IMG/VR virus record: IMGVR_UViG_3300043775_000777
Span: 26,683-90,682 of that record
Source of the DNA: a virus
Direction: 5' to 3' (one strand)
Length of the DNA stretch: 64,000 nucleotides
Shown in pieces: positions 3 to 45,217 of this stretch (its first letter is position 1; every line of letters starts with the position of its first letter). Under the pieces are notes generated by a model. The model made no database searches. It saw only the letters and a program-made list of their open reading frames with translations, and was not told the origin of the DNA. The position numbers and the translations under genes were made by a program.

Positions 3-3000
3 TCAGATGTAACATCACATGCTTTACAAGGTATCTTAGATAGAGCTAAAGAATCATTTCCATTTGAATTAAAACTGGTTCCAGAAGCTATGGATGTATT
101 TAGTTACATGCTTCAGGCCGGAGTTGATGAGGAACAAATATTCTTTTTCTTAAACCAACCTCTTATTGCTGAGTACTTTGAAAAACAAAAGTTAAAAGAA
201 AGTGCTTATTCTAAAATAGTTGGTAGTAAAGAGAAAGGTAGTCCTGCAAATAATATCATAAACAATTTGCTTAAGAACTTTGACCAGGCTAGTTTGAATC
301 CATTATATGATAGAATTAATGTAGCTAAATTAAGATATGTTCTAAATGGTTTAAAAACTAAAGGTGAAGACCAAACATATTATTTCAAAATAAAGAAAGA
401 TTCTGGTATTAAAGAAATTACATTAAAAGACTTACTTGATAGATTAAACAGCGGTGGTTTAGCTCCTCAAAATATTGAGAGAATATCTACCATGCCTAAT
501 ATGAGTAATGATTCTACAGTTTATTTTTATAGCAATGCTATAAACAGTACAGAGAACTTTGCTTTTGCAACTGAAGTATTGTCAAATGAATACTTACCAA
601 AAGGTGATGTTCCTACAAAAACTTTAAAGGATGGTGTAAAAGATAACAAGACAATGAAAGCTCTTGCATTATTCATGAACTATCTTGAACTGGAAAGACA
701 GTTTAAAGGTATGAATGATTTGCAACAAACATTCTCTCCGGATACCGGCAAGCTTACTACAGTACAACAGGTACTTAAAAGAATGGAAGCTTATGAAGAA
801 TTAAGAAAGAGTAAATCAATTGATCAAGACTTCTTAAACAGATTACTTAAAGAATCTATACTATCTTCATTTAACCAAGATGACTTAATTAAACAGCTTA
901 CCGAGCCTTTGTTTAATCTAAGACTTAATCCTGAGATAACTAAATATATTAGTGATGCATTTGTAGATCAATCTAAAGCTTCTAGAATTAGAAACAATCC
1001 TACATTTGGTAAAGGTATAAATGGTCAGGAAAGATTTAGTACTTTGTTTAACAACGGAGTAATAAACTACATCTATCAAAACTATTTGTCTAACTTCAGC
1101 AATGAAAAAGGAGAACTAGTAAATATCCCGGATACTTATAAAGATAACAGACCAGTTATTAAAGTAGATAATTTAGACACAGATGTTGAAATAGTAGAAG
1201 AAGGTATAGCAATTAACACCCGCAGAATTGAAACTGATTATGCAAACAAAGCATACTTAGAAACAAGTGTGGCTGAAAATAACTATGGTTCTAGAGGCCT
1301 GGATACATTTAAAATCAAAGATGATCCATTCCAGACATTAGCAAGTTATTACAGATATGTTATTGCTAGAGAGTCTAATAGAGTAAATCACCCAATTGAA
1401 TCTCTTGAAAATAATAGTGAATTTATGAGACGGGTATATGCAATGGGTAATGCCAATGATGCATATGAAAGCTATATATCTGAAAGAGCACTAGGAGCTA
1501 GTTTCAACAATAAGTATATCATGGGTAAAACCAAATATAGTTATTCTGATTCTTTGTTGAATTTAATTAATGAGTTTGGTGATACACTTAAAGTTAATTA
1601 TCCTATAACAGCTCAATTATCTCCGGGAACAAACACAGAAGGTGCTAAAGTTCTTCAGTTAAATAACCAGAAAGAGGCACAAGGAGAATTAGCTTCAGTA
1701 TATTATAACAATCTTAGAAACTTAGCTGACCCAAGTGTAACTAAAGTTCAGAATAAAAACAAAACTGATGAAGAAAATGAAAGTGATAACCAAAGAATAT
1801 CTGAGATGTTTAATTTGTTCTCACTTAATATGTTCTATCAACATGGTGTAGGTAAAACAAGATTAGGTTTTATTAAAGCATTAGATCCTGTACAATACAA
1901 AGATATTGTTGAAGGTGGATCTAAAGCATTCCTTAAGAACTACTTGAGCACTGAAATACTAGATGAGATATTCAACACAGTTGTAAGCATGGATAAGTTT
2001 AAGAACTATCTTGTTTCTCCGGAAGGATATATCCATAGTGATCTAGCAACAACAGAGACATCTAAACCAACTAATGATGGTACATTAGAAACATTTGATG
2101 ATAGTGAAGGAGAAGATGAAGTTCTAGTAAGATTAATAAATCAAGAAGATGTTAATGCATTTAATGATTATGTGAAAAAATCAGGAGGTAAAAGACCTGA
2201 GAAATTCTTTACATCTAAAACTTTATACCCTGCATTCTATAACTCAGCTACTGGTAAAAGAGAAGGCATGCCTCAGACTGCTATATGGATTAAAAACCAA
2301 TACGGTACATATGACATGCTAGATCAAGAGACCGGTGAGTTCTACTATGAGAATGTAAACCTTGCAACAGGTATGCAGATCACTAAGAAAGAAGATGTTC
2401 AACCTACTCAACCTACAGTATTAACAGGATTCCAAGGATATAAAGGAGGATTTCCAGAACAACAAACTATAAATGGTAAATTATATAAGAAAGGATCAGA
2501 AAATGGAGATCCTAAAGATTATGCAATGAGAGAAATTGCTGGTGGATTTATTTTAGAGTTGGATCCTAAGAGAGAAAATGATTCATCTACAGGAACTACT
2601 GCAAAAGAATACCCTAATTACAGAGAAGGTGTGATGGTAGGTTCTAAAAATTTCTATAATGACATTGTAATGTTAGCTAGAAATAATGAATTTAAAAACA
2701 AACCTTTATCTGAAGAAACTAAAGCATCTATTAAGGATGCACATGATGAAGGAGTATCTTTTGTTGTAGGAGATATGCCCGGGGTAGATAGTCAGTTTAT
2801 AGATTACTTACAAGAAATAGGTGCTAAGTTTACTATATATCATACAGGTACAACACCTAGAGTTCAAGTAACTCAAGCTCCTACTCAACCGTCTGAAGTT
2901 AAAATAGAACCTACAGATAAAATTATCTGGGGACATCCAACTATTGGTAAAAGTTTCTTAAAGAAAAATCAAGATAACAGATTTATTTCTTTAGATGATG

Positions 3001-5546
3001 ATTATGCCACTGAGATAAATACTAAAGTAAAAGAGATAGCTGATAAATACAATGTGACAACATATCAGGTTAAAGATGGAGATAATCAACAATGGAATAC
3101 TGAGTATAATGAAATGATGCAAAATCTTTTTGATAAAGCTAAAGCAGTTGCTTTATCTGAAAATAAAATTCTATTTACATCCAATACTAACCTGTTAAAA
3201 AATAATGCAGCTGCTTTTGATAAAGTTATTAATCTTACTGATAAAGAGTTTCAAAAAAGAATATCTGAAAGAGGTGCTAAGTATGACACAGCAGAATGGA
3301 AAAAACAAATTGAAGATGCAGTATCTAAAATTCCTAGTAACAAAGTAATAGTTACAGATAAGTATCTTTCTGATTTATTACCTACTCAACCGTCTACTAC
3401 TAGTACATCAGAATCAGTAGCAGATATTCCACAAAATAAAGTATCCGGAATAAATTCTTATGGTTCTACAGTAACAGCTAACAATGAAGCTATCAAAGCA
3501 CTTGGTCCAAATCCACATTCTATTGATATGATAGAAGCAGGATTTAGAACAAGAACAACCAGAAGTGAATCTGAAATGGCTAAATATGCTATTAAAGTTG
3601 GGGATACTATAAAACACTTTGGTAAATCTGCAGATGGTTCAACTAAAACTGTTTATGCTAAGGTAACTGCTATACATCCTAAAGGTTCTGAAGGTTGGAA
3701 AGGTACTTGGAATAAAGAAGGTTGGAGAGCTGAAGATGTAAATGTTATAGATAGATTTAAAGACGGTGCTGCTGCAATAGAGTTTGAAGTAATTCAACCA
3801 TCTACTCAACCTACTGAAGCTCCTGTAAGTAATACTAATAAACCTAAAGGTGAAGAAGTAGTACCTGGAATATATGTAAATCAAGCTGCTTTAAGTAAAG
3901 AAGAACAACTTGAATTGTTTGATTATTTAAAACCATATCTTGAAGAACAAGCTGATAAAAGTCTTAAAGCAACACAAGGTAGTAAAATGATTGGTCTTGG
4001 TTTAAGATGGGATTATACAAGTAATAATCCTGGAAAAACAACTGTTAACATCCCTGATCCAATAAAAAGAAATCCTAAATATGGTTATTATAACCAATCA
4101 GTTAATGGTCAACCTCTTGGACAAATTACACCAAGATTTAGAGAGTTAATGCAAAAAGCTACCGGAGTAGATATGACAAACTATGATGGTGCTATTATTA
4201 ATCTTTATGAAAAAGATACCTTTATATCTTCTCATAATGATGTAGATGAAAGTAAGTCAGCTATTAAGTATCCAGTTATTGGTATTAATCTAGGTGGTAA
4301 AGGTAATTTCTCAATTGAAAGAATACCAGGAGCAGGTCAATTAAGTTTAGAAGCCGGAACAGGTTATATATTTGGTGTTGATGGTGTTAATAGAGAAGTA
4401 TGGCACAGAACATTCCCGACTCCACAAGATACATTTTTACCAGAACTTACTACAAAAATTGATGGTAAAACATATCCTGCTGGTTCTTATAGGGTTACTA
4501 TTACTATGAGAAGAGTTATGCCTTTAGAACCTAGTATGCCTACAGCACCGGCTAAGATTACTACACAACCAGTTTCTCAACCTACTGAAGTTAAAGAAGG
4601 AGTACAAGATATATTTAATTCTAATCCAGAATTAGCTAGTATAGGAACACCTGAACAATATTCTCAATACTTAGATACTATATTTCCTGATAGTAAAGTA
4701 AAAGATATTGTTTATAGAGGTGCTGAAAAAGGCATAGAAAAACATAGAGCATATTCGCACTGGACTTTAAGAAAAGCTATTGCAGAAAACTTTGCTAAAC
4801 AAGGAGTTAACCTTAATAAAAAAGATGAATCAAAAAACACTGTTTATTTTGCGTTACTTAATATAAAAAATTTAATAAGAAGTATTGAAATAACAGATAA
4901 AGAACATAAAGAAAGAGGTTTTGATGCAGCAGCTTCATTTCCTAATCAGCAAAAACCAGATGGTACTTATTATAAGAATGAAGAAGCAAATGAATCTATA
5001 CAATTAATAGACAAAAATTTAAACAATGAGATAACTGTATTTGAACCAGAACAAATTCATATACTAGGAAACAAAGAAGACTTAAAAGGATTTAAACAGT
5101 TTGTACAAGGTAAACAATCTGTTAATGTTTCTGTAAGTCCAAAACCTGAAGCTACAATTGATACAGATATAAATGTATACAAAGATCTACTTGCTAAAAA
5201 CAATGGTGTTCAACCTCAGACATTTACTTCAGAGAATAGAATGTACAGACTAAATAAGTTTGGTAACTATGACTTAGTAGATAAAACTACCGGTGAAATA
5301 TATATGAGAAACATTAATATGGAGACAGGTAAACAGGAAACTGAACCAGGTCTTGATTCTCCTGTGGATCCTGTAGCTAAACAAGCTGCCCTTGATAAAA
5401 TCATCACTTTAAGAGCTACAATTAACATAGAAGAACAATTAGCAGTAATGGGTTATGATATTAATGATATAATCAATAATTTAGCAAATGCTAAGACTCA
5501 GGAAGACTTTAATAAAATAACTAAAATACTTGATAAATTATGTTAG
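3..5546 (+). CDS. Giant virion protein, 5'-truncated by the window; probable C-terminal part of the crAss-like virion RNA polymerase polyprotein with appended polyvalent modules
   Basis: The frame is open from nt 3, upstream of the ATG at 90. The N-terminal stretch LQGILDRAKESFPFELKL...MLQAGVDEEQIFFFLNQPLIAEY resembles, from memory, the post-catalytic motif (VDxAKDP...RxG...FxxQPII) of crAss-like RNAP subunits. The catalytic DxDxD motif is not in the window. SLOG-, P-loop-, ASCH-, AlkB- and ART-like modules follow. Confidence 0.65.
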   Translation, partial: SDVTSHALQGILDRAKESFPFELKLVPEAMDVFSYMLQAGVDEEQIFFFLNQPLIAEYFEKQKLKESAYSKIVGSKEKGSPANNIINNLLKNFDQASLNPLYDRINVAKLRYVLNGLKTKGEDQTYYFKIKKDSGIKEITLKDLLDRLNSGGLAPQNIERISTMPNMSNDSTVYFYSNAINSTENFAFATEVLSNEYLPKGDVPTKTLKDGVKDNKTMKALALFMNYLELERQFKGMNDLQQTFSPDTGKLTTVQQVLKRMEAYEELRKSKSIDQDFLNRLLKESILSSFNQDDLIKQLTEPLFNLRLNPEITKYISDAFVDQSKASRIRNNPTFGKGINGQERFSTLFNNGVINYIYQNYLSNFSNEKGELVNIPDTYKDNRPVIKVDNLDTDVEIVEEGIAINTRRIETDYANKAYLETSVAENNYGSRGLDTFKIKDDPFQTLASYYRYVIARESNRVNHPIESLENNSEFMRRVYAMGNANDAYESYISERALGASFNNKYIMGKTKYSYSDSLLNLINEFGDTLKVNYPITAQLSPGTNTEGAKVLQLNNQKEAQGELASVYYNNLRNLADPSVTKVQNKNKTDEENESDNQRISEMFNLFSLNMFYQHGVGKTRLGFIKALDPVQYKDIVEGGSKAFLKNYLSTEILDEIFNTVVSMDKFKNYLVSPEGYIHSDLATTETSKPTNDGTLETFDDSEGEDEVLVRLINQEDVNAFNDYVKKSGGKRPEKFFTSKTLYPAFYNSATGKREGMPQTAIWIKNQYGTYDMLDQETGEFYYENVNLATGMQITKKEDVQPTQPTVLTGFQGYKGGFPEQQTINGKLYKKGSENGDPKDYAMREIAGGFILELDPKRENDSSTGTTAKEYPNYREGVMVGSKNFYNDIVMLARNNEFKNKPLSEETKASIKDAHDEGVSFVVGDMPGVDSQFIDYLQEIGAKFTIYHTGTTPRVQVTQAPTQPSEVKIEPTDKIIWGHPTIGKSFLKKNQDNRFISLDDDYATEINTKVKEIADKYNVTTYQVKDGDNQQWNTEYNEMMQNLFDKAKAVALSENKILFTSNTNLLKNNAAAFDKVINLTDKEFQKRISERGAKYDTAEWKKQIEDAVSKIPSNKVIVTDKYLSDLLPTQPSTTSTSESVADIPQNKVSGINSYGSTVTANNEAIKALGPNPHSIDMIEAGFRTRTTRSESEMAKYAIKVGDTIKHFGKSADGSTKTVYAKVTAIHPKGSEGWKGTWNKEGWRAEDVNVIDRFKDGAAAIEFEVIQPSTQPTEAPVSNTNKPKGEEVVPGIYVNQAALSKEEQLELFDYLKPYLEEQADKSLKATQGSKMIGLGLRWDYTSNNPGKTTVNIPDPIKRNPKYGYYNQSVNGQPLGQITPRFRELMQKATGVDMTNYDGAIINLYEKDTFISSHNDVDESKSAIKYPVIGINLGGKGNFSIERIPGAGQLSLEAGTGYIFGVDGVNREVWHRTFPTPQDTFLPELTTKIDGKTYPAGSYRVTITMRRVMPLEPSMPTAPAKITTQPVSQPTEVKEGVQDIFNSNPELASIGTPEQYSQYLDTIFPDSKVKDIVYRGAEKGIEKHRAYSHWTLRKAIAENFAKQGVNLNKKDESKNTVYFALLNIKNLIRSIEITDKEHKERGFDAAASFPNQQKPDGTYYKNEEANESIQLIDKNLNNEITVFEPEQIHILGNKEDLKGFKQFVQGKQSVNVSVSPKPEATIDTDINVYKDLLAKNNGVQPQTFTSENRMYRLNKFGNYDLVDKTTGEIYMRNINMETGKQETEPGLDSPVDPVAKQAALDKIITLRATINIEEQLAVMGYDINDIINNLANAKTQEDFNKITKILDKLC
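2403..4590 (+). repeat. Five copies of a PTQP(S/T)-coding linker (core CTCAACC) separating domains
   Basis: Copies at 2403-2413, 2880-2894, 3381-3395, 3802-3819 and 4576-4590. CCTACTCAACCGTCT is identical in copies 2 and 3; CTCAACCTACTGAAG is identical in copies 4 and 5. Confidence 0.85.
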
Positions 5547-30416: not shown

Positions 30417-30419
30417 AGG

Positions 30420-30602
30420 CTACATAAAAAATGGGAACAATAATCCTTTTATCTCAGAGATAATAGGTCCAATAATAAGTGTACTTAAAAATCCATGTGT
30501 TTGAGACCACTGATACCAAAAATACAGCATAAATATATGTGCTGTAATCATATATAACCAAATAATAGCTGTAAAGACAGCTAGTCCATCATCATTTCTC
30601 AT
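30420..30602 (-). CDS. Small membrane protein
   Basis: Hydrophobic 60-aa ORF. Confidence 0.55.
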   Translation of the reverse strand: MRNDDGLAVFTAIIWLYMITAHIFMLYFWYQWSQTHGFLSTLIIGPIISEIKGLLFPFFM

Positions 30603-30613
30603 ACTAATAAATT

Positions 30614-31115: not shown

Positions 31116-31132
31116 ACCATTAAGATAATAAA

Positions 31133-32248
31133 TTAAACTGTCACATTGAAATTTTTCCACATAATTTTAGTCTGGTCAAATCCTTCCAATGCATCTTTTA
31201 CCCATTTCTCATCTACTGTATCCATATAACATAGTATATGGACAATAGCTTTATCATCTGGGTTTAGCCGGAGTAATCTACCAATTCTCTGTGCAGCCTT
31301 TCTCTCATTACCATATGCATGCATAATAATACCTTGTTTTAAATTAGGTATGTTTACACCCTCATTCAACTGTAGAACAGTAGAAAGTTTGGTAATCTCT
31401 CCATCTTTGAACTTAAGCAAGTTCTCTTCTGATTTTGGATTGTTGCTATGATAGCTATGATCACATAACTTATCAGCTTGAGCCTGAGTATTAGCAAATA
31501 GAATACACTTACTTTCTATGCTGTCAAATAATAACTTAGCATACTTTTCTTTAGTAGGATATTCCATAAGAGCTTTCATTCTCATAACTCTAAGCATATG
31601 TACACTGCCGGAGCCTACATCTAGTCTTCTAGACCAATAAACATAATTAGATTCTTCATCTGTCATATATGTTTTATTCTTCATAGTGACTTGATAGTTC
31701 TTTACTTTGCTTAATCTTAGCTCATGCACAACAATCTTATAATCATTCAGTATTCCATTTTCTATGGCATCATCTGCCTTAAATGTAAATACTACAGGAC
31801 AAAACTCTTGCACTAACTTACCTTTTTCTGAATAGTCTCTCTTTGGCGGAGTACCGGTCAGCCCAAGTATCTTGCCTTTAAATAACTGCAAGAATCCCCG
31901 GTGACTGTCTAGTAAACTATGCATCTCATCTAAGTATACAACATCATAATCATTAGGATCATGTTTGTTTAAGCTTAGATAAGTAGTGAAGACTACTCTA
32001 CCTAGAAGATGATGCTTATCAAACTTAACAGCATCATCTTTCCAGGATTGAAATATAGCTTTTTTAGGTGCAACTACAAGACATTTCATCAGTGGTGTAG
32101 TATTTCTATCCATATGAGTCAGGCCAACAAGGGTCTTACCGACCCCTGTGCCTAAGACTACAGAAGCCCGCTGCTTACCATCAGTAGCAGCTAGAGCTTC
32201 TATTTGTATGTCTTGTCTGTCTTTTGTCATAAATTTTATTTTAACCAA
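31133..32248 (-). CDS. Superfamily 2 helicase
   Basis: GTGVGKT, DEMH, TGT and QRIGR motifs. Confidence 0.88.
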   Translation of the reverse strand: MVKIKFMTKDRQDIQIEALAATDGKQRASVVLGTGVGKTLVGLTHMDRNTTPLMKCLVVAPKKAIFQSWKDDAVKFDKHHLLGRVVFTTYLSLNKHDPNDYDVVYLDEMHSLLDSHRGFLQLFKGKILGLTGTPPKRDYSEKGKLVQEFCPVVFTFKADDAIENGILNDYKIVVHELRLSKVKNYQVTMKNKTYMTDEESNYVYWSRRLDVGSGSVHMLRVMRMKALMEYPTKEKYAKLLFDSIESKCILFANTQAQADKLCDHSYHSNNPKSEENLLKFKDGEITKLSTVLQLNEGVNIPNLKQGIIMHAYGNERKAAQRIGRLLRLNPDDKAIVHILCYMDTVDEKWVKDALEGFDQTKIMWKNFNVTV

Positions 32249-35844: not shown

Positions 35845-36066
35845 TTATCTTTTTAGTTTAAACTCTTGTTTTCTTTGCTCATCATACCATATTTGCACAC
35901 TTATACAAACTGTGATTGACACTAACAAACCTTGAAAAACATAACCAACTGGTGTGTAATTTTCAAAATTGAAGGCTGCCCCATATGTTATCAAACCTTC
36001 TAGGATACATAATACTACTAATCCTATACTTACATTCAAAATAAAATTTACTAATTTCATAATCAT
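35845..36066 (-). CDS. Membrane protein (2 TM)
   Basis: Two hydrophobic helices. Confidence 0.6.
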   Translation of the reverse strand: MIMKLVNFILNVSIGLVVLCILEGLITYGAAFNFENYTPVGYVFQGLLVSITVCISVQIWYDEQRKQEFKLKR

Positions 36067-36139
36067 ACATTTTTTAGTTAATAAATAAGACAGACTATTA
36101 CACCTTTTGTCTGTCTACTGCGGTTGGAGGTGTACGCAA

Positions 36140-36394
36140 TTATACTAAATACTTAACTGTCATAGCATAGCCAAATAGACCGGTAGCTGCACCACAAAAT
36201 GCTATTAATGTTACTGTCATAGCATTAATTGTTTTGTTCTGCATTAACTTGTCTAATTGTTCTTCTATAACTACTATCTGATATTCTGCTTCTGATAGCA
36301 TTTGATACTTTAAATCTGCTGGAACATCACCCATTTGAACTTCATCTCTAAGGTTGTTCCAAAAATCTAGCTTTTCCTGTAGCTCTTTAATCAT
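36140..36394 (-). CDS. Coiled-coil protein with C-terminal membrane anchor
   Basis: Heptad-like N-terminus and hydrophobic C-terminus. Confidence 0.6.
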   Translation of the reverse strand: MIKELQEKLDFWNNLRDEVQMGDVPADLKYQMLSEAEYQIVVIEEQLDKLMQNKTINAMTVTLIAFCGAATGLFGYAMTVKYLV

Positions 36395-36486
36395 AACTTT
36401 TAGTTTTTAGTGTTTAAATAATACTGTGAATAAAATAGTGCTATAAGTAGCACAGTAATCATAATCTCTTTCATAATCATTCAATA

Positions 36487-36660
36487 TTAGTTTCTATATG
36501 CATATGGTCTTGACTGTGCTTTGCGGACAGATCTGTCCACATGCTCTTTTCTACCATTACCGTGACAAGTCTTATTTGCAGCACAACTAGTTAACCATAG
36601 TGCAAACATAATAAACAGTCCAACTAACATTCCTTTGATTACAATAATTACATTTTTCAT
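36487..36660 (-). CDS. Small lipoprotein (57 aa)
   Basis: Hand translation MKNVIIVIKGMLVGLFIMFALWLTSCAANK...; lipobox LTSC. Confidence 0.6.
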   Translation of the reverse strand: MKNVIIVIKGMLVGLFIMFALWLTSCAANKTCHGNGRKEHVDRSVRKAQSRPYAYRN

Positions 36661-36756
36661 ATTAAGGGTTTAAGGGATTACTAAATAAAAGTACACAGTG
36701 AGAGTTTTAACCACACCCGCTCACAAGTTGACCGCGTTACTGTGTACTTAAGCTAA

Positions 36757-37020
36757 TTATCTATCTTCATAACATTGCTGACACATATGTACTTCATCAC
36801 AAGTACATGTCAGTTCAGGGTTAATTGCATAGAGTCTTGCCATATCAGCAAACTCACTAGCAATCTCACCGTGCACCTGAAACTTAGGCTTAGGTGTAGT
36901 TACAGCTCTCTTAGCTCTAATAAGCATCTTGAGAGTATTCCGGAGATGATTAATGTCCATATCATCAACATTAATCTTCTGACCATTCTTCATAGTCCAG
37001 TAAACAGGTTCTTGAATCAT
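36757..37020 (-). CDS. Hypothetical protein with C-terminal Cys cluster
   Basis: WTMKNG...MDINHLRN; CxC...CxxC tail. Confidence 0.65.
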   Translation of the reverse strand: MIQEPVYWTMKNGQKINVDDMDINHLRNTLKMLIRAKRAVTTPKPKFQVHGEIASEFADMARLYAINPELTCTCDEVHMCQQCYEDR

Positions 37021-37169
37021 ATCAATAAAAGTTTAGTAGATAATATTTCTAGTTCTTCTTTATCAAATGATGTCTTAACCAATACAACATTGCTATTAGA
37101 CCAGTACTGTTTAAATTCTTGTTCTGTTTGGACCAATAATGTTCCACGGTGTTCAAATAAGTAATACAT
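37017..37169 (-). CDS. Small hypothetical protein (50 aa)
   Basis: Hand translation MYYLFEHRG...; ATGA overlap with the next gene. Confidence 0.55.
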   Translation of the reverse strand: MYYLFEHRGTLLVQTEQEFKQYWSNSNVVLVKTSFDKEELEILSTKLLLI

Positions 37170-37209
37170 AAGTTTAAGTTTTAAGTGAATAATAAATAAA
37201 ATAGGGGAA

Positions 37210-37524
37210 TCACTCCCCTATTTGTTCTAACACTGGCAGCTCATCATAATGATAGCTACTACTAGTAGTGTCTCGCATAACATTTAAATAGTTACAATAG
37301 TCTAATTCAGGATCAGAACTTACATAACCATTATCAATACACTGTGATGTATAGTCTTCATAACTAAGAATTTCTTCTTCTGTAGTAGACTCTACTATAT
37401 CAGCAATTTTTTGTTTAGCAAGTTCTTCAGTGCTATAAACACCAACTATACTAGTTTCAGGTTGACAATAATTATCATCTGTGTCACGTATGAATGTCCA
37501 AAAAACAATGTATACTTTCTTCAT
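37210..37524 (-). CDS. Hypothetical protein
   Basis: VYIV...IVGVYSTEELAK pattern; stop lies in the loop of the terminator at 37201-37221. Confidence 0.7.
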   Translation of the reverse strand: MKKVYIVFWTFIRDTDDNYCQPETSIVGVYSTEELAKQKIADIVESTTEEEILSYEDYTSQCIDNGYVSSDPELDYCNYLNVMRDTTSSSYHYDELPVLEQIGE

Positions 37525-37596
37525 AAGTTTATGTTTAAGTTTAGGTTTAAGTTTATAAAATAAGCAGTTTATAGTCCTGCTTAGGACTCACAAAGG

Positions 37597-37842
37597 TTAC
37601 TGATAGGCAGAAGACATAAATTTCCTTAAATAAGGAAATGTATATTCTTCATTAGTATGCCCTAATACAGTATGATTACCGGAAACACCATTTTTTACTT
37701 CATAAGTAGAAAAGATTTTATATTTCCAATAACCATAATCATTAACATACCAACCTTCATGGGTATCTTCTCCTACATTGTATTTAACTACATTGTTATC
37801 AAAGACAATCCATCTGCAATAATTTAATACTGTTTTTTCCAT
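37597..37842 (-). CDS. Hypothetical protein
   Basis: 81-aa ORF. Confidence 0.6.
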   Translation of the reverse strand: MEKTVLNYCRWIVFDNNVVKYNVGEDTHEGWYVNDYGYWKYKIFSTYEVKNGVSGNHTVLGHTNEEYTFPYLRKFMSSAYQ

Positions 37843-37869
37843 TCTAAGTATAAGTTTAAGTGAATAAAT

Positions 37870-38770
37870 AAAGTTTCTATAAGTTAATTAATACACCACA
37901 GTTATAAGATTACGTTCACTACCTCAACAGGTTTCCTCTTACAACTGCAATGTATTAATACCACAAGTCAACCCCTGCTTTACAGGATGAGGGGTTATGC
38001 CTGAAACCTTGTGGTTAAATCAGATTCATTAGGTACTATAACAGTAATAATAACAATAACAATATTATTATGACATTCCATAGCCTTTCATTGACCGGTC
38101 CGATCTGGTATTGCTACCCAGACAAATCTCCGGACTATGGCAGTTACAAAGTAACATTTATCTACCCTTGTAGTGATAATAAACTATCACTCTGTGAGCT
38201 GAATCTGAATGCTCAACAGAAACCCGGTTCTTACATACTGAATCTCTATGAACCGGGAAGTTAAAGAGTATTGTTATTAGGTATAACCCACCATTAGTTA
38301 TTCTAGGTGCTACAACACCACAGTAAACTAATAAACTGTAACAAAGGTAATGCCTATCTGCTGTGTTAACTATGCTAAACAATAGGACTTGTGACCGGAA
38401 ATTACTGCTTTCCCGGAAGCCTTTACTGTGCTCATCTAACTAATACTATATATAATAGTAGTAATAGTAGTGTATTACTGATTCTGTGTAATGCTAAGTC
38501 TATGATTAGCCATATACTTAGTATTGTATAAGCTTTCACAAGCATTCTGTGACTGTTTCTGTTGGTATAATAATGCTGAGAGTTTGTCACTCAACCCCAA
38601 ACTAACCTACATTCATTCACAGTTTGTTATTAATTACTGCACATATATTACACTATGGGTATCTTCATTCCCGGGGGTAGTATGCAATAACTGTGCACTT
38701 TAGTCTTGACCATTCAATCAGCGGTTGTTGACCGGTAGTTGACCGCTGAAACAGTCTAACTATTTTTTTT
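37870..38770 (-). ncRNA. Candidate large (~900 nt) structured non-coding RNA
   Basis: No convincing ORF; at least nine stems, including nested ones (37960/38015, 38078/38140, 38172/38191, 38223/38257, 38718/38749); GCAA tetraloop and G-U pairs favour the - strand; early motif variant at 38772-38783 directly upstream. Confidence 0.6.
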
Positions 38771-38883
38771 AAAATTAAAGTTGCTTAAAGCTATTGTCTG
38801 AAAGACAATTAAACACATAGTATATACTATGGCTTCACTAAAAATAATAAGGGTGTATTTCTACACCCCTATTATCCTTGAGA

Positions 38884-39288
38884 TTATATCCCAATTTCCT
38901 CAGATACCTCAACCTCCTCAAAGTCATCATCAGAATTCTCAGAAGCAACAACAAGGCTTGATAATGTGTACCAAGGTTTACGCGCAGTTCCATCAGCATT
39001 CTTGCTTCTAGAAACTTTACCTAAGTAGGTTTCCCCTACCTCCATACCTTGCTCATAGCTAGTACTATACACTACTATATCAGCTTTGGTGTGGCTGTTA
39101 CCATTATCATCAGTAAACCTGATAGTTGCTAACTTGTAGGTTAGGGTATCCCCGTTACCATTAGTGTAAGTGAACTCTTTATCACTTAATCTAACCAAGG
39201 TAGCCTTAATGTTGGCAACCTTTTGCACATTACCACTAGGTGTTGTTTCTTCCTTAAACACCAACGCAATCTTTTTCTTTTCAATCAT
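38884..39288 (-). CDS. Beta-rich protein with acidic tail (possible OB-fold/SSB-like)
   Basis: Alternating beta pattern; tail DDDFEEVEVSEEIGI. Confidence 0.55.
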   Translation of the reverse strand: MIEKKKIALVFKEETTPSGNVQKVANIKATLVRLSDKEFTYTNGNGDTLTYKLATIRFTDDNGNSHTKADIVVYSTSYEQGMEVGETYLGKVSRSKNADGTARKPWYTLSSLVVASENSDDDFEEVEVSEEIGI

Positions 39289-39406
39289 AACTTTTTGATT
39301 TTTGGGTTAATAATAATTTTCTTACAATAAAAGTTGCAAAAGGCTAAGCCGAAGGCTTCCAACACTGTCTGTTATTAACTCTCTCTCAGCTTAAATAAAA
39401 AGGGGA

Positions 39407-39619
39407 TTACTCCCCTAATTTATTTTCTGCTTGTGTTACAAGTGGCTCTATAATACCTTCTTGTATGTCATCTCTAAATGCTTTTAGAGTATCTATTGCT
39501 ATGCTAAGTTCATATTTATCATAAGAAATCAAATCACTATCTGTTTTTATGACTCTTTCATAAAGACTAATCTTTGCATTAAGCATTGCAATAATGTGTA
39601 ATACCGTTTCTGTGTCCAT
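39407..39619 (-). CDS. Early hypothetical protein (70 aa)
   Basis: Start MDTETV 18 nt after the motif; stop in terminator loop. Confidence 0.7.
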   Translation of the reverse strand: MDTETVLHIIAMLNAKISLYERVIKTDSDLISYDKYELSIAIDTLKAFRDDIQEGIIEPLVTQAENKLGE

Positions 39620-39686
39620 ATTATATAGTTTAAGATTAAATAAAAGTTGTCTGTGTAAATAGAAAGGGGAACAATGTCCCCTATAT

Positions 39687-40073
39687 CTATGGCTTAACAG
39701 GTGCTTCCAACAACTGAAACAAATCATCTTTGTCTAACAGTTTGTGTATGTCTGCCTGATATCTGTATAATTCAGTACGATATCTGTCCCAAGCACCATA
39801 ATCAGCACACACAAGTTTAAGTTTCAGAACATTAGCTTTGGATTCTTCATAATCTTTGGAATCCATACCAAGTTCTTTACTAGCATTAATCTGGCTATTC
39901 AACACGCCTATTGCAAAGACATATTGTTTATCAGAACTACCCTTGTCAATAGAAATGTTGTTGTTAACATAAATCTCAGGAATAGAATTTATTGATTCCA
40001 TTAATTGAGAACACATTTCTTGTGCAAATTCAAAATCTGCTTTTGCTTGTTTGTAAGCTTCTAACTTTTTCAT
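39687..40073 (-). CDS. Early hypothetical protein
   Basis: 128 aa, with motif and terminator. Confidence 0.7.
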   Translation of the reverse strand: MKKLEAYKQAKADFEFAQEMCSQLMESINSIPEIYVNNNISIDKGSSDKQYVFAIGVLNSQINASKELGMDSKDYEESKANVLKLKLVCADYGAWDRYRTELYRYQADIHKLLDKDDLFQLLEAPVKP

Positions 40074-40128
40074 AGTGTATATTTTAATATTTTATTTCAA
40101 TAAAAGTTGTAAAAAAATAAAGAGAGTA

Positions 40129-40275
40129 TTACACCCTCTCTATCTTTCTCTCCATATATAACTTTACATAGAGCTTTTCTAGTTTGTCTGAATCAACCAT
40201 ACTGTTCATTGCCTTAATAGCACTAAGCATAGTTTCATATTCTTCCCAACTAATTACAATAGTTACTTGTTCCAT
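40129..40275 (-). CDS. Early micro-protein (48 aa)
   Basis: Hand translation MEQVTIVISWEEYETML...KIERV; motif upstream, stop in hairpin. Confidence 0.65.
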   Translation of the reverse strand: MEQVTIVISWEEYETMLSAIKAMNSMVDSDKLEKLYVKLYMERKIERV

Positions 40276-40318
40276 AGTATATAATTTAGATTATATTAAA
40301 GTTGTTAAAAAGGGGATA

Positions 40319-40576
40319 TTACTCCCCTTCTTTCCAAGGTCTATACAGTCCTGATTCACAGATATTGTGTGCAAAAGAATTTAATTTCTTTTCAAAATCT
40401 TCAATATCAACTTCAGCATACCAACTTGTGCAATCTTTGTTAAATGATTCAAGAGCCTGTTTATATTTGTATGCTAAAAAATGATAGTCTATTCTTTTTT
40501 CTTCAGGATAACTGTGATAGTTTACTGAACGGTCTACCATACCTGATAGACTTTTAAATGCTTTTTCAAAGTTCAT
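40319..40576 (-). CDS. Early hypothetical protein
   Basis: 85 aa, with motif and terminator. Confidence 0.7.
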   Translation of the reverse strand: MNFEKAFKSLSGMVDRSVNYHSYPEEKRIDYHFLAYKYKQALESFNKDCTSWYAEVDIEDFEKKLNSFAHNICESGLYRPWKEGE

Positions 40577-40645
40577 ATTATATAGTTTTAATTTTCTTAA
40601 AATAAAAGTTGTTAAATGAAAAAGGGGATATAGTCCCCTTACTGA

Positions 40646-40714
40646 TTATCTCATTATGCGGTATTTAACATAACACAATAAGAATACAAATCCCCAAAGA
40701 ATTGCTGTTACCAT
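40646..40714 (-). CDS. 22-aa hydrophobic peptide
   Basis: MVTAILWGFVFLLCYVKYRIMR; has its own motif (40739) and terminator (40622). Confidence 0.55.
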   Translation of the reverse strand: MVTAILWGFVFLLCYVKYRIMR

Positions 40715-40790
40715 AGTTGTTAGTTTTAAATTTTAATAAAATAAAAGTTGCTATGTATAAATAAAAAGGGGGAATTTCTTCCCCCATAAA

Positions 40791-40973
40791 CTATACAACT
40801 AACAATGTATGTTCAGGGTGTATTATATGGTATTCTTCTACCAAACTATCCCTGTAAGCCTTTATCTCTTCTTCCGGCAATTGCTCAAATGCTTTTAACA
40901 TAGCTTTGTCAGCTTTTTTTCCTAATAAGATTAATATCCCATCAATCTCATCAATCATAAATTTTGTTATCAT
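40791..40973 (-). CDS. Early hypothetical protein
   Basis: 60 aa, with motif and terminator. Confidence 0.65.
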   Translation of the reverse strand: MITKFMIDEIDGILILLGKKADKAMLKAFEQLPEEEIKAYRDSLVEEYHIIHPEHTLLVV

Positions 40974-41021
40974 ATTGTATATATTTTTATTACAATAAAA
41001 GTTGAAATAAAAACTTAGGGA

Positions 41022-41210
41022 TTATCTCCCTAAGTCTTCATCATACTCAAATGTTCCGGTCTCTATGTATTCATAGATCTCATGCTTAGTAGCATAGTCT
41101 ACAACTTTGCCGTCTTCAAAGAACAGTGCATACTGTTTCCGGCCATCCATAGTCTGTTGATACTTAACTTGTCCTGTAAGTAACAACCAAATGAAAATAA
41201 CTTTTACCAT
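41022..41210 (-). CDS. Early hypothetical protein
   Basis: 62 aa, with motif and terminator. Confidence 0.65.
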   Translation of the reverse strand: MVKVIFIWLLLTGQVKYQQTMDGRKQYALFFEDGKVVDYATKHEIYEYIETGTFEYDEDLGR

Positions 41211-41255
41211 AATATATATTTCTAATGCAATAAAAGCTGTTTAAAAGAAGAAGGT

Positions 41256-41396
41256 TTATAAGCCTTCTTCTTCTTTATACTGTAGATATGATTCATATGC
41301 TGTTAAGCAATATGCATCATACTCTGCTTGTAATTCAGCACAAGAATTACAATGGTTTTCATCACCTAGTAAACAGGCACAAGTTGTATTTTCCAT
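41256..41396 (-). CDS. Early Cys-rich micro-protein (46 aa)
   Basis: MENTTCACLLGDENHCNSCAE...; CxC...CxxC. Confidence 0.6.
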   Translation of the reverse strand: MENTTCACLLGDENHCNSCAELQAEYDAYCLTAYESYLQYKEEEGL

Positions 41397-41443
41397 AATA
41401 TAAGTTTAGCACACAATAGAAGTTGTATTAAATAAAAAAGGAG

Positions 41444-41701
41444 CTATTGCTCCTTAATTATAATGTCTTTCAACCATTGGTTAATGAACTCTTCAGTTAC
41501 ATAACCTATTGGATCTTCCATACATCTAGTGTCCCACATTTCAAATGTAGTTACACCATCTCCTTTTAATCCAAATCCACCTCCTACAACACTAATCATT
41601 TCATCTTCATTAGGATATTGAAATGTCCAATGAGTTGCACCCGGTATTACACGGTGTGCCTTCCTGATAAAATCTTCAGGGAATCTTAATGCCTTTGTCA
41701 T
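41444..41701 (-). CDS. Early hypothetical protein
   Basis: 85 aa; ISVVGGGFGLKGDGVTTFEMW. Confidence 0.7.
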   Translation of the reverse strand: MTKALRFPEDFIRKAHRVIPGATHWTFQYPNEDEMISVVGGGFGLKGDGVTTFEMWDTRCMEDPIGYVTEEFINQWLKDIIIKEQ

Positions 41702-41753
41702 AATGTATAATTTATCATTAAATAAAAGCTGTTTAAATAAAAAAGAGCAAGGA

Positions 41754-41930
41754 TTATTCTCCCTGCTCTTTTACTCTACAAACATTAAACACAATGTATT
41801 CTCCCGCAGTATGTATCTCATATTTCTTGAGAATACCTTTGGTCATCCATTGATTCAATCTAGTTTGCATTTTAGTTAGTTCTCCTGCATCTGATGCAAG
41901 AAAACTATAAAGGTCAACACGTAGTTTCAT
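41754..41930 (-). CDS. Early micro-protein (58 aa)
   Basis: Hand translation MKLRVDLYSF...KEQGE. Confidence 0.65.
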   Translation of the reverse strand: MKLRVDLYSFLASDAGELTKMQTRLNQWMTKGILKKYEIHTAGEYIVFNVCRVKEQGE

Positions 41931-41995
41931 ATGTATAGTTTCTGTGGCAATAAAAGCTGAAAAATAAAAAGAGAGACATTGTCTCTCTCTTAATG

Positions 41996-42196
41996 CTATG
42001 CACCTTGTAGCTTTTCTTCTATGTGCATTATTAGGTTAAGCATTCCCATAATGGAGCAACCTGCTAATATAATACCCATAGTAATTAAACCTACCATTGG
42101 TGCAGTTGGTTCTACAGATAATACTCCGAAGAAGTATAAACAGAATGTGCCAAGGCCTGAAGCATATAGCACAATAAACTTAAGTAATTGTTTCAT
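41996..42196 (-). CDS. Early membrane protein (66 aa, 2 TM)
   Basis: Start MKQLLKF 18 nt after the motif at 42215. Confidence 0.65.
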   Translation of the reverse strand: MKQLLKFIVLYASGLGTFCLYFFGVLSVEPTAPMVGLITMGIILAGCSIMGMLNLIMHIEEKLQGA

Positions 42197-42327
42197 AGTA
42201 TATAATTTCTCATACAATAAAAGCTGTCTAACACAGAAAAAAAAGGGGATATCATCCCCTGTAGTGTTTAACTTTTCATAGCTTTTAGTTTTCATACAAT
42301 AAAAGCTGAATTAAAAAGCAATACAGG

Positions 42328-42510
42328 TTATTCCCCTGTATTACTTTCCATTGCTGATACAGCAGCTTCAATACCTTCTTGAACATAAGCTCTATATGCT
42401 TTTAAATCAGATAGCTCATATAGTTCTTTAAATGTCTTACCTTCTGTTTCTAAGGTAGCAATTGCTTTATCTAGCGTTTCAGCTAAATCAAATAGTTGGT
42501 TTGCAGTCAT
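42328..42510 (-). CDS. Early hypothetical protein (60 aa), first gene of the leftward unit
   Basis: Start MTANQL 18 nt after the motif at 42529. Confidence 0.65.
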   Translation of the reverse strand: MTANQLFDLAETLDKAIATLETEGKTFKELYELSDLKAYRAYVQEGIEAAVSAMESNTGE

Positions 42511-42544
42511 AGTTATTAGTTTCTCATACAATAGAAGTTGTGCT

Positions 42545-42835
42545 ATATACTGTCTTCTCTGTGTGTGTGGTTGGTGTGCTGCCTCGGTTGTCTCAGCACC
42601 CTCCCCCCTCTGTGTCATAGTCTTCTGCTTAGCTTTTGCATCTGTTGTCTCTGCTTTGTTCTGTCTCTGCTAGCATCCACACACTTTTCCTGTGTCAGAG
42701 TTTTTTAGATTTTTTCCTAGATTCAGGCTTGCTCCCTCAGCTTCATAGGGGGTATGCCACTTTTTTTCAGAGCCCCGGGGGTTTTTGCTATATGCCCCAT
42801 CTCACACTCTTATATACTACAACTTAATTATCTTA
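42545..42835. other. Non-coding strand-switch region with strong base skew; possible genome end or packaging region
   Basis: The + strand is A-poor and CT/GT-rich with G/C runs (GGGGGT, CCCCGGGGG); it separates leftward from rightward transcription. Confidence 0.4.
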
Positions 42836-42841
42836 AAAAAA

Positions 42842-42872
42842 TTTGGTATGTTTAGAATTATGTATATATTTG
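42842..42872 (+). promoter_or_regulatory. Bacteroidota sigma70-type promoter
   Basis: TTTG (42842-45), 19-nt spacer, TATATTTG (42865-72). Further intergenic TATATTTG copies at 43133, 44452, 44548, 45868 and 53629. Confidence 0.75.
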
Positions 42873-42874
42873 TT

Positions 42875-43115
42875 GAGCTAATAACTTTCATTTTAGGATT
42901 AATACTAAAAGCCCCGGAGCTACAGTCTGGGGTTTTTTAATAAGTGTGCCCCCCTGTGTTGAGATAGACATAGGCCAAGTTCCAGACAGCATACCGTAAG
43001 ATCTGCTCACTACACTGGACTTTTTGGTTACTGGGAAAGCATGGTACCAACATGTATAACTAGTAACAACCCCAGATAAGTTTCTCTGATCAAGAAATAC
43101 TGTCTGGGTTTTTTT
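42875..43115 (+). ncRNA. Candidate structured small RNA(s)
   Basis: Downstream of the promoter with no ORF; stems 42977/43022, 43027/43067 and 43071/43108, with U-tracts at ~42935 and 43109-15. Confidence 0.4.
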
Positions 43116-43123
43116 GTATATTA
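43112..43123 (+). promoter_or_regulatory. TTTTGTATATTA putative late promoter (copy 1 of 4)
   Basis: Exact copies at 46170, 50651 and 61682, each at the head of an operon. Confidence 0.6.
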
Positions 43124-43145
43124 GATATTGTATATATTTGTAGAT

Positions 43146-43589
43146 ATGAAAAAGTATGACATGGGTAAGTATGTGCTCCTGGCCGGGGAAGATGCTACCA
43201 AGATATTTGACTACTATGATGTAGATGAGATGCACGGGTTGAACAGAAAAGATGCTCAGGCAGAAGAAGTAGATAAGACTGTAGGCAACGGGGTTTATAT
43301 TTATGGGTGGACTAACTATGACCCAGCAGATAAGAAGCTTACTGCTAAGAAGCCTTATCTCCCGTTTCTGTTTATTAACCTAGGTACATTTAAGAGGTAC
43401 TCTATTACAGAGAAAGCTACCGCAGTTATGCATGAGACTATGCATATGGCTTTGTTACTTAATAACTGGAATGTCAAGGATAAAGAAGAAGAGGTTATTA
43501 CTTATGCTGAAGATGAAGCTAACAAGATTATTGATAAGCTAGGGTTTGATAAGAAGGAGCAACCTAAAAAAGGGTTCTTCAAAAAATGA
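43146..43589 (+). CDS. HExxH zinc metallopeptidase-like protein
   Basis: AVMHETMH followed by EEVITYAE; likely start MKKYDM. Confidence 0.6.
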   Translation: MKKYDMGKYVLLAGEDATKIFDYYDVDEMHGLNRKDAQAEEVDKTVGNGVYIYGWTNYDPADKKLTAKKPYLPFLFINLGTFKRYSITEKATAVMHETMHMALLLNNWNVKDKEEEVITYAEDEANKIIDKLGFDKKEQPKKGFFKK

Positions 43590-44260
43590 AAGTATACTTT
43601 GATCATGTCCAAGGCTTTGGCAAAGTAAGTGACCTGGAGTTAATTATCAACTGTGCATATGGAATATTAGAACCTAATGAATCTCCCACAGATGCATTAC
43701 TACAAGGATGGATACCGTGGGAGGGTAAGTGGTATAATGAGCGCAGTACTAGAATTAATTTAGCTAAATATAGACCATCTAAGACTACTAAGAAGTTATC
43801 CAAAAAGATTATAGTAGAAGCTGGAAATATTGATGTATCATTAGAACAGTACACAGAACTATACAACAAATACTGTCAGCATCATGGCTTCAAAAGAGAT
43901 ATCAAGCTAGAGTCATTCAAGGATTGTTCTGTTATAGAGTATCAAACAGATGAGCTTGTTGGTATTAGTTTATACAAACAGTTTGATACACAGTTTGTGG
44001 CATATCAGTTTATATGGGATTATGCAGATCCTAAACTTTCTCTAGGTACAGTAGCTCAGATGATGGAGTGTGAAACTGCAAAGCTTCTGAACTGTGAGTA
44101 TGTTTATCTACTTGGTGGGTATGAGCAGTGCTGTAAGTATAAAGCTAACTACCCGGGGTTTGAATTCTGGACAGGTGCAGAGTGGTCTACTGATATAGAA
44201 CTTTATAACACTCTAGTAGATAGAGATGAAAGAATAAAGATTGAGAACTATGATGTATGA
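43586..44260 (+). CDS. Ate1/Bpt-like aminoacyl-tRNA--protein transferase
   Basis: LLQGW, RSTRI, YxKY, WDYxDPKLSLG, AKxxxCEYVYL and C.KYK, matching ATE_N/ATE_C patterns. Confidence 0.75.
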   Translation: MKVYFDHVQGFGKVSDLELIINCAYGILEPNESPTDALLQGWIPWEGKWYNERSTRINLAKYRPSKTTKKLSKKIIVEAGNIDVSLEQYTELYNKYCQHHGFKRDIKLESFKDCSVIEYQTDELVGISLYKQFDTQFVAYQFIWDYADPKLSLGTVAQMMECETAKLLNCEYVYLLGGYEQCCKYKANYPGFEFWTGAEWSTDIELYNTLVDRDERIKIENYDV

Positions 44261-44447
44261 ACCAACTAATAGGATAGAGGTAAACACACCTAAAGGTTCT
44301 GGGATCATATGGATCATTACTGACTATGGGCATGAGACGGATACTATCTATACTGTGATTATTACAGCCACCGGAGAGTTCTGGCAGTTTACTCACAAAG
44401 ACATCCGTGCAAAAAATAATTTAACTTATGGTAGAGATATAAAATAA
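44241..44447 (+). CDS. Hypothetical protein
   Basis: V.TPKGxG...W.F pattern; 68 aa. Confidence 0.6.
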   Translation: MRTMMYEPTNRIEVNTPKGSGIIWIITDYGHETDTIYTVIITATGEFWQFTHKDIRAKNNLTYGRDIK

Positions 44448-44498
44448 GTTGTATATTTGTACTAGTTCATAACTGAAAATTTAATTAATTGTGCTGAG

Positions 44499-44526
44499 AA
44501 CCCTGGAAATTTTTTCTGGGGTTTTT
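44499..44526 (+). terminator. Intrinsic terminator
   Basis: ACCCTGG...CTGGGGT plus U-tract. Confidence 0.55.
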
Positions 44527-44604
44527 AGTTTAAATTAAAATAGTTTATATATTTGTGTCACCAACAAACCATGAGAGCAATAACTCCTAATTATTTATTT
44601 ACTA

Positions 44605-44910
44605 ATGACTGCCCAGCAAAAGCTGTTGTGGGAAAAGCTAACTGAAGAAGTTAGAGATACCGGCATGGATAACCTCCGTGCCCGGGAGCTCTATGATGAA
44701 CTAAGTAAATTATTAAATATGTCAGATAAAACATTGATATCTATTACAGAAAAAGAAAAAGGCCTAGAGGTTAGACTACATGAAGAAGCCTATGGTAATC
44801 TAGCTCTTATAGGTTTATTAGAAAAGATCAAGTTGAATATCTTAGATTCTCTTCCTGAAGATAAAGAACCAGAAACTAAACCTAGTGCTAAACAAAAATA
44901 TGACGCGTAA
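44605..44910 (+). CDS. Hypothetical protein
   Basis: 101-aa ORF after TATATTTG at 44548. Confidence 0.6.
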   Translation: MTAQQKLLWEKLTEEVRDTGMDNLRARELYDELSKLLNMSDKTLISITEKEKGLEVRLHEEAYGNLALIGLLEKIKLNILDSLPEDKEPETKPSAKQKYDA

Positions 44911-44929
44911 CAAATTAAAACCAAATACA

Positions 44930-45217
44930 ATGAGTGAAGAAAAACCAACTTATGCAATGCCGGAGAATAACCCGGAGATTATTGAACACAAGATTGTTCC
45001 TTTTGGACATCAGTTGATGGGATTAGATCCAGATAATCTAGATGATACTACAGTAACTAAAGTAAAGTTACTAGCAGCAGAAATGGCTGAGATCTTAAAG
45101 ACAGATTATGAGAATGAAAGAGGGCCCTTGAAAAGCTTACTCTTTGATCATGCATTAGGAGAGATATTAAATGCATCTATGTCAGTAGTAAAAGTTTTAA
45201 CACTAAAGAATAAGTAA
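44930..45217 (+). CDS. Acb2/Tad1-like helical-hairpin protein (divergent)
   Basis: FG...GL...DDxxVxKVK...A...AxxExxNAxMxVVKxLT pattern. Confidence 0.5.
   Translation: MSEEKPTYAMPENNPEIIEHKIVPFGHQLMGLDPDNLDDTTVTKVKLLAAEMAEILKTDYENERGPLKSLLFDHALGEILNASMSVVKVLTLKNK

Follow-up and report, generated by a model that had tools for sequence, protein, structure and literature searches.

The window analysed here is 64,000 nucleotides (nt) long and covers bases 26683-90682 of the 115,433-nt virus record IMGVR_UViG_3300043775_000777, which is 97% complete. At the head of its leftward (minus-strand) gene arm stands an array of 15 short units, each opening with its own copy of an element of about 20 nt, CARCTTYWATWK-N6-AA, which we read as an early promoter of the phage. 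The array as a whole is best explained as an early, hyperplastic arm head of 15 monocistronic units that start at a phage promoter, read most probably by a polymerase carried in the virion, and that are shuffled by homologous recombination; we give this reading a probability of about 55%. The phage itself is taken, as part of the same explanation, to be an environmental crAss-like phage with a Bacteroidota host. The cassette structure and its shuffling are well supported.

Results

All 15 copies of the element are minus-strand and confined to 38764-42540 (3.8 kb), with none elsewhere in the 115-kb genome. With at most one mismatch, CARCTTTTATTG matches the window 16 times (1.84 expected); 13 of these matches are minus-strand sites in 39325-42540, and reading that strand brought the total to 15 with CAACTTTAATAT (40304) and CAACTTTAATTT (38783), both weaker copies. 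The extended pattern CARCTTYWATWKNNNNNNAA, built from the 15 copies themselves and then checked on other genomes, finds exactly 15 sites in the window (0.11 expected) and the same 15 in the whole genome. In two other complete genomes its matches all fall within homologous arrays (8 of 8 in G001, 14 of 14 in G006); it has one match in G002 and none in G003. By a k-mer count restricted to intergenic DNA (a zero-order k-mer ranking had been dominated by coding bias), the element is the sole recurrent non-host intergenic motif family in the genome, and the more than 50 leftward genes downstream of the array have A-rich AAACTTAAAC-type leaders without it. The original prediction for this DNA, about 15 self-contained cassettes in which each small leftward gene has its own copy of a 12-nt motif, is borne out by these counts.

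Aligned on the motif, the copies are conserved up to position 20, and C1, A2, C4, T5, T6, A9, T10, A19 and A20 are invariant in all 15. The gap from motif to ATG is 17-19 nt in ten units (nine with real genes and one with a 3-codon open reading frame (ORF) only), 23-24 nt in three and 36 nt in one, and no ORF follows the last copy (38783); the earlier count of nine and three thus agrees. A19 and A20 are present with leaders of 17-36 nt and in the ORF-less unit alike, so their distance to the motif is constant whatever the leader length, and the element is fixed to itself and not to the ATG. Within it, the invariant A residues come 5-6 nt after a -10-like TATWKT hexamer, a spacing that places the predicted start of transcription at A19/A20.

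Hairpins predicted to fold at -8 kcal/mol or lower precede 14 of the 15 copies, copy 1 being without one, and 12 of these 14 hairpins have a T-tract and so the look of intrinsic terminators. Terminator-like sites are enriched six-fold in 36000-45000 (22 vs 3.5 expected). At 12 units the GC stem lies 6-17 nt from the motif, with loops of 3-8 nt and variable stems. The stop codon stands inside the terminator-hairpin loop in 8 of 13 units, and many C-termini consequently end in G-E or similar residues encoded by the stem. Because the distance to the motif varies and copy 1 lacks a hairpin, the hairpins of upstream genes are predicted to be terminators and not promoter parts of the phage N4 type. 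A hairpin and U-tract just before each motif had been proposed, which is right for most units and not for copy 1; the further suggestion that the upstream hairpin doubles as a promoter element does not stand for the hairpins of upstream genes, and survives for units 14 and 15 only, where a separate hairpin in fixed register is found (see below).

The reading as an early promoter is favoured because the element heads an arm without any other promoter candidate, follows terminators, is strand-specific and intergenic, fronts a non-coding stretch as well as genes, and varies in a concerted, lineage-specific manner. The homologous region was retrieved from seven other contigs through the unit-14 protein and then its alignment, and all seven have arrays of the same build. 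The element takes the form CARCTTtTATTg in lineage 1, gTGTTG-CAACTTttaTag in lineage 2, CARCTTTATAAt (with the hexamer a perfect TATAAT) in lineage 3 and AAACTTATTTATAAG/T in lineage 4; all forms have the CTT core in common, as well as a hexamer resembling TATWKT that is followed after 5-6 nt by AAA. No such array was found in G002, G003 and G004 (portal identity 81%), for G003 and G004 in the regions fetched.

Cassette content and order differ in all eight arrays compared, a comparison among relatives that had been put forward with the original prediction. With genes named by family, the order in the window is F-[3 codons]-K-C-L-H-D-A-u-u-E-G-M-B-nc. In L103, H comes before L (units 5 and 6 swapped), and in G001, G comes before E (units 11/12 inverted) and F is third. 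G006 differs from the window by two replacements, with 98% identity in the flanks. At the first, identity spans gene C and its terminator, ends 2 nt before the unit-5 motif and resumes at the unit-5 terminator stem; in between, G006 has an unrelated 66-aa (amino acid) gene, and this foreign gene bears 41 nt of promoter, leader and first four codons identical to unit 6 of the window. At the second, units 9 and 10 stand against one 87-aa gene in G006, with breakpoints in the leader just past A17-A20 and in the next terminator stem. The exchanged part is accordingly mostly the coding body between shared regulatory ends, a pattern that fits homologous recombination between repeated promoter and terminator sequences. 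The units are thus portable, being gained, lost, replaced and reordered among relatives, and the motif and hairpins appear as exchange points, both as had been predicted.

Host-type promoters (TTG near -33, TAnnTTTG near -7) were found at none of the units, and none heads the leftward arm or precedes copy 1, which upholds the earlier claim that the motif is not the host promoter. The sole exact host box on the minus strand of 38700-43200 is at 41549, within coding sequence. On the plus strand, host-type boxes occur at 42865, 43133, 44452, 44548, 45868, 53629 and 61665, six of them identical (TATATTTG) and one TAAATTTG, all near-consensus Bacteroidota -7 boxes; the first two (42865..43140, TATATTTG at 42865 and 43133) mark the head of the rightward arm. 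Five host boxes front small genes at the head of that arm (43.1-46 kb), and these genes may be an immediate-early set for the host polymerase. Generic sigma-70 promoter-like matches are not enriched (51 vs 42 expected). The motif was also compared with a -33 TTG followed by a downstream -7 box and with a sigma-70 -35 box and fits neither, and the resemblance of GCTTTTA to the T4 MotA box was judged superficial.

A candidate reader of the motif is encoded at genome position 18393-32228, by a gene whose 4,611-aa product has DFDGD at residue 2532; the C-terminal part of this protein lies in the window at 3..5546 (+). A tblastn search with the 1,000 residues around DFDGD had, among the matches listed, crAss002, Rudgehvirus jaberico and IAS virus, the genes mostly annotated as RNA polymerase (E down to 9e-9), and the tally also contains two records of phages of Cellulophaga baltica #14. 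Neither phmmer against PDB sequences nor a PHROG scan had a match for this region. The DFDGD motif and the tblastn matches together indicate that the phage has a homologue of the crAss-type virion RNA polymerase (RNAP). The T7-like polymerase family PF00940 has no match in the genome, but the control genomes were likewise without a match. The C-terminal part of the 4,611-aa protein also contains an AlkB-like 2-oxoglutarate- and Fe(II)-dependent (2OG-Fe(II)) oxygenase domain (PF13532, E 8.7e-11) at window 3873-4511 (+).

Units 14 and 15 have a small second hairpin that comes after the previous gene's own terminator and is part of what we call the class-II upstream module. At unit 14 (module at 39337..39358, minus strand) this hairpin has a stem of 5 perfectly matched bp and a 3-nt loop (AAGCC ttc GGCTT, 39358-39346) and is followed by AGCCTTTTG; at unit 15 (module at 38784..38809, minus strand) the stem has 7 bp, again without mismatch, and the loop is also of 3 nt (ATTGTCT ttc AGACAAT, 38809-38793), with AGCTTTAAG behind it. 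In both the motif starts 9 nt past the stem. Hairpin pairs were tallied by script at these two units and their counterparts in relatives, 13 junctions of five lineages. Every one shows a fully paired stem of 4-7 bp closed by a 3-nt loop (TTC or TAC) and AGCYT behind it, with the motif beginning 8-9 nt (once 11 nt) past the stem. Eight distinct stem arms occur among the 13, and a ninth stem is found in the same layout upstream of gene B in lineage 4. Such covarying stems favour a nucleic-acid structure and disfavour a protein operator; the hairpin may act as DNA, as an RNA element or as an insulator.

The sister lineage G002 (L090 1900-2830; G002:108400-109330; portal 81%), which is without a CARCTT array, has a two-box signal in three copies, consisting of a 3-nt-loop hairpin, CGCTTT, about 10 nt and then TTTTTCCACTA. 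These signals precede two paralogous 85-90-aa genes and an ORF-less region, and the layout of a 3-nt-loop hairpin followed by CGCTTT is thus present at all three early-type units of this genome.

Genome setting and units of the array

The genome has matches to the PHROG families for portal, large terminase and B-family DNA polymerase. Among isolated phages the closest portals are those of a Leptolyngbya phage (34%) and an epsilon crAss-like phage (28%), followed by crAssphages, Cellulophaga phages and Flavobacterium phages. Genes are arranged in three blocks, one of them made up of eight giant genes on the plus strand, that for the 4,611-aa protein included. The replicative block is on the minus strand, from window 42618 down to 9222, and is opened by the array, which leads to PolB and other replication genes; the structural block is on the plus strand from window 43146. 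Between the divergent arms, just upstream of copy 1, lies a CA/GA-repetitive, purine-rich stretch without ORFs (42560-42720, minus strand). No tRNA genes or Rfam families were found in the window, and the array region has no DNA match in the phage collection searched.

All units are on the minus strand. Unit 1 (42309..42540) has its element at 42540-42521 (CAACTTCTATTG..AA), no upstream hairpin, and a 60-aa gene of family F (42510-42328) with the stop codon within the terminator loop. Unit 2 (42227..42308) is an 'empty' cassette: behind its element (42308-42289) there are only a 3-codon ORF (42279-42268) and a strong terminator (42260-42244) with a T8 run. It is kept in G006, an analogous 2-codon unit is found in G001, and it may be a scar left by deletion of a gene body or else the source of a small RNA of about 50 nt. 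Unit 3 (41960..42226; element 42226-42207) encodes a hydrophobic 66-aa protein of family K (42196-41996; terminator 41991-41967), and unit 4 (41732..41959; element 41959-41940) a 58-aa protein of family C (41930-41754; terminator 41772-41741), a family found in most relatives. Unit 5 (41426..41731; element 41731-41712) has an 85-aa gene of family L (41701-41444; terminator 41455-41438), unit 6 (41240..41425; element 41425-41406) a 46-aa Cys-rich gene product of family H (41396-41256), and unit 7 (41005..41239; element 41239-41220) a 62-aa product of family D (41210-41022). The 60-aa product of unit 8 (40751..41004; element 41004-40985; gene 40973-40791; terminator 40785-40768) belongs to family A, which is present in all array-bearing relatives.

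Unit 9 (40612..40750; element 40750-40731) encodes a 22-aa hydrophobic peptide (40714-40646; terminator 40640-40622), and the 85-aa gene of unit 10 (40305..40611; element 40611-40592; gene 40576-40319) is unique to this array. Unit 11 (40110..40304) has the variant element CAACTTTAATAT at 40304-40285 and a 48-aa gene of family E (40275-40129). Units 12 (39650..40109; element 40109-40090) and 13 (39367..39649; element 39649-39630) encode 128 aa of family G (40073-39687; terminator 39682-39665) and 70 aa of family M (39619-39407; terminator 39416-39401), respectively. Ten array proteins were tested and none was above the Pfam or PHROG threshold; the sub-threshold matches were to DUF327, ARC6, FimA and phrog_30440 only.

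Unit 14 (38884..39336; element 39336-39317) is conserved in every relative and has a 36-nt leader before a 134-aa gene of family B (39288-38884). The structure model of its product is all-beta with a disordered acidic C-terminal tail (mean predicted local distance difference test, pLDDT, 68). Its fold matches are SSB/RPA OB folds nearly throughout the best 50 listed, all weak (E ~3e-3, template-modelling (TM) score 0.30-0.37), and the model suggests that the product is likely an early protein resembling single-stranded-DNA-binding protein (SSB). Unit 15 (37843..38783) has its element at 38783-38764 with no ORF behind it, and marks the beginning of some 900 nt of conserved sequence without ORFs. 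This stretch starts with CGGTCAA direct repeats 11 nt apart (38745-38728); CGGTCAW has 9 matches in the window against 1.8 expected, and relatives have 2-3 such repeats at the same place. It could encode an early non-coding RNA like that of phage phi14:2, or be an origin of the iteron type into which early transcription runs. Inside the stretch, at 38349 (minus strand), there is a host-type box, TACCTTTG.

Discussion

The proposed course of events is as follows. Each unit would begin with the phage-specific promoter, giving transcripts with 5' leaders of about 9-28 nt if they start at A19/A20, and would close with a hairpin and T-tract terminator. A virion-delivered crAss-type RNAP would transcribe the units before the host polymerase reads the rightward arm. 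Recombination between the near-identical promoter/leader and terminator repeats would replace, delete, duplicate and reorder coding bodies with no integrase required. Units 14 (the SSB-like gene) and 15 (the ORF-less RNA or iteron region) would have in addition the hairpin with covarying stem and 3-nt loop, 8-9 nt upstream of the motif.

The polymerase that reads the motif is probably that of the virion, as the original prediction had it, by analogy and also by elimination, since there are three precedents and the element is the only non-host motif family. In phi14:2, the virion polymerase transcribes the genes of the replicative strand early and in a rifampicin-resistant manner, and middle and late genes are on host-type promoters (Drobysheva et al., 10.1101/2020.03.07.982082). 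In crAss001, a small early operon lies ahead of middle replication genes (PMC8375218), and for the virion two-barrel polymerase of P23-45 the start sites are immediately preceded by a short AT-rich motif that is conserved (PMC10770324).

Several observations weigh against this reading. The remaining 29 kb or so of the leftward arm are without the motif, so the virion polymerase would transcribe the 3.8-kb head only, or reach the rest by read-through. No common motif was seen upstream of the early transcripts of phi14:2 (10.1101/2020.03.07.982082), and a clear motif is thus not what the only experimental precedent predicts. G002 and G003 are close by portal identity (81%) and have no array. No RNA run was found to contain this DNA. 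From one related freshwater metatranscriptome, two short contigs fall on the window: one of 189 nt with 3 mismatches covers 39124-39298 in the unit-14 gene, and about 40 nt at 37845-37885 in the ORF-less stretch are also touched; within the array these contigs touch the unit-14 gene only and are silent on start sites. Lastly, TATWKT-N5-6-A is the classical sigma-70 -10/start geometry, which makes a host holoenzyme with another specificity factor conceivable.

On that last account the element would be a non-canonical promoter for the host RNAP, read through an alternative host sigma or through a specificity factor that is virion-delivered or made from the rightward-arm host promoters, in the manner of T4 MotA/AsiA. 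We consider this possible and on the whole unlikely. The geometry suits it (with TATAAT itself in lineage 3), as do the five small rightward genes with perfect host boxes, which could be immediate-early, and the hairpin/T-tract terminators, which are of the same type in regions read by the host polymerase. However, the element has neither a TTG/-33 box nor the TTTG half of the -7 box of Bacteroidota, searches for sigma-factor domains in the phage found none, and the virion polymerase would be left without a recognisable target set. If instead the motif acted at the RNA level, the hairpins would be points of cleavage or stabilisation in one long leftward transcript, with the motif serving as a processing site or as an enhancer of translation initiation for genes without Shine-Dalgarno sequences. 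Bacteroidota mRNAs do lack Shine-Dalgarno sequences, and the 17-19-nt spacing from motif to ATG is near constant in most units, yet the A19/A20 register follows the motif and not the ATG where leaders are 23-36 nt, unit 15 has no ORF and unit 2 only 3 codons, the more than 50 genes further down the arm do without the element, no promoter candidate for a long transcript lies upstream of copy 1, and the hairpins have canonical T-tracts. Such an RNA-level role is highly improbable.

An N4-style promoter, in which the upstream hairpins extrude as DNA and are needed by the virion polymerase, with the motif at or just past the start site, draws on the class-II junctions (13 of 13, eight stem arms, motif 8-9 nt and once 11 nt past the stem) and on the recurrence of their layout upstream of gene B in a fourth lineage and at three G002 units. 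The N4 start lies 8 nt past the promoter hairpin (PMC4496689), and phi14:2 gp66 transcribes single-stranded DNA only in vitro (10.1101/2020.03.07.982082). It is nevertheless very unlikely as a general account, for at 12 other units the hairpins, 6-17 nt away from the motif, are terminators with a GC stem, a T-tract and a loop of 3-8 nt, copy 1 is without any, the two-barrel polymerase here is unrelated to the T7-like N4 enzyme, and the hairpin would be some 28-45 nt upstream of the predicted start. A combined version can also be drawn up, in which the 20-nt element, CARCTT-(AT-rich, -10-like)-N5-6-AA, is the crAss-type virion RNAP promoter and works with an extruded 3-nt-loop DNA hairpin at the two oldest units and in the sister lineage G002, a convergence on N4 by an unrelated polymerase, with the SSB-like protein of unit 14 perhaps helping to open the other promoters; we regard it as speculative and quite unlikely. 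As for the exchange of units, the original prediction called them 'integron-like', with no integrase. The second part was confirmed: PF00589 is absent from the 115-kb genome, in a search whose control matched 14 of 14 genomes. The first was not, and a dedicated recombinase acting on the motif or hairpins as sites is hardly credible. The presence and order of whole units do vary among relatives as such a system would have it, but each unit has its own promoter-like element and terminator, as against promoterless integron cassettes under one common promoter, and breakpoints are scattered within tens of nt (T-tract/motif border, leader, codon 4, terminator stem), which fits homologous exchange and not one fixed crossover point. 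Homologous recombination between regulatory repeats, as in T4-type phages (PMC2839356), remains the preferred reading for the exchange, and a phage promoter read by the virion polymerase that for the element.

The crAss-like phages are among the most abundant phages known. The target of their injected RNAP has been addressed experimentally in phi14:2 only, where no shared motif was seen and the enzyme was active on single-stranded DNA only. The motif described here is a testable candidate promoter for a crAss-type virion RNAP, and the lineage offers clean test material, with 15 near-identical copies, lineage variants, a predicted start nucleotide and two units with covarying hairpins. The shuffling would account for the turnover of early ORFans between strains that are 90-98% identical over shared blocks of the array region.

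Comparison with known systems

Phage N4 (PMC4496689) likewise uses a virion polymerase for its early genes, and two conserved units here resemble its promoters in a hairpin (stem of 4-7 bp, loop of 3 nt) whose distance to the conserved element that follows is fixed at 8-9 nt. The polymerase of N4 is T7-like, however, whereas a two-barrel polymerase is present here, 13 of the 15 units have no such hairpin, and there is no GC-rich heptamer. Also compared were phi14:2 with gp66 (Drobysheva et al., 10.1101/2020.03.07.982082) and crAss001 (PMC8375218), which have in common with this phage a giant virion protein with DxDxD, early genes that head the replicative strand, host-type promoters on the structural strand and long ORF-less early regions; the difference from phi14:2 is that it has no common early motif, while here there are 15 near-identical copies, known from sequence evidence. 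P23-45 (PMC10770324) resembles the array in having an AT-rich conserved motif directly before the starts of many small pre-early genes and a virion single-subunit two-barrel polymerase, and its relatives without that polymerase are also without the motif. It differs in phage group, host and motif, and its units end at a special 26-nt motif and not at a hairpin and T-tract.

The closest known kind is the promoter-early stem-loop (PeSL) cassette of T4-type phages (Arbiol et al. 2010, PMC2839356; Comeau et al. 2014, PMC4122927), in which PeSL-mediated shuffling has been described. In both, the small ORFans of a hyperplastic region are separated by copies of a composite of early promoter and stem-loop terminator (promoter and terminator activity being predicted from sequence in the present case), and both undergo indels, replacements and reshuffling with breakpoints in the repeats and no dedicated recombinase. 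PeSL promoters match the host sigma-70 consensus, whereas the element here is unlike the Bacteroidota consensus used elsewhere in the same genome. The PeSL stem-loop is usually interleaved with the -35/-10 boxes, whereas here a separate canonical terminator, often with the stop codon in its loop, lies upstream of the promoter, and two conserved units have an extra hairpin in fixed register. The phage, too, is of another type, a crAss-like podovirus with a virion RNA polymerase. The array would thus extend PeSL-type shuffling from T4-like to crAss-like phages, here with a non-host promoter.

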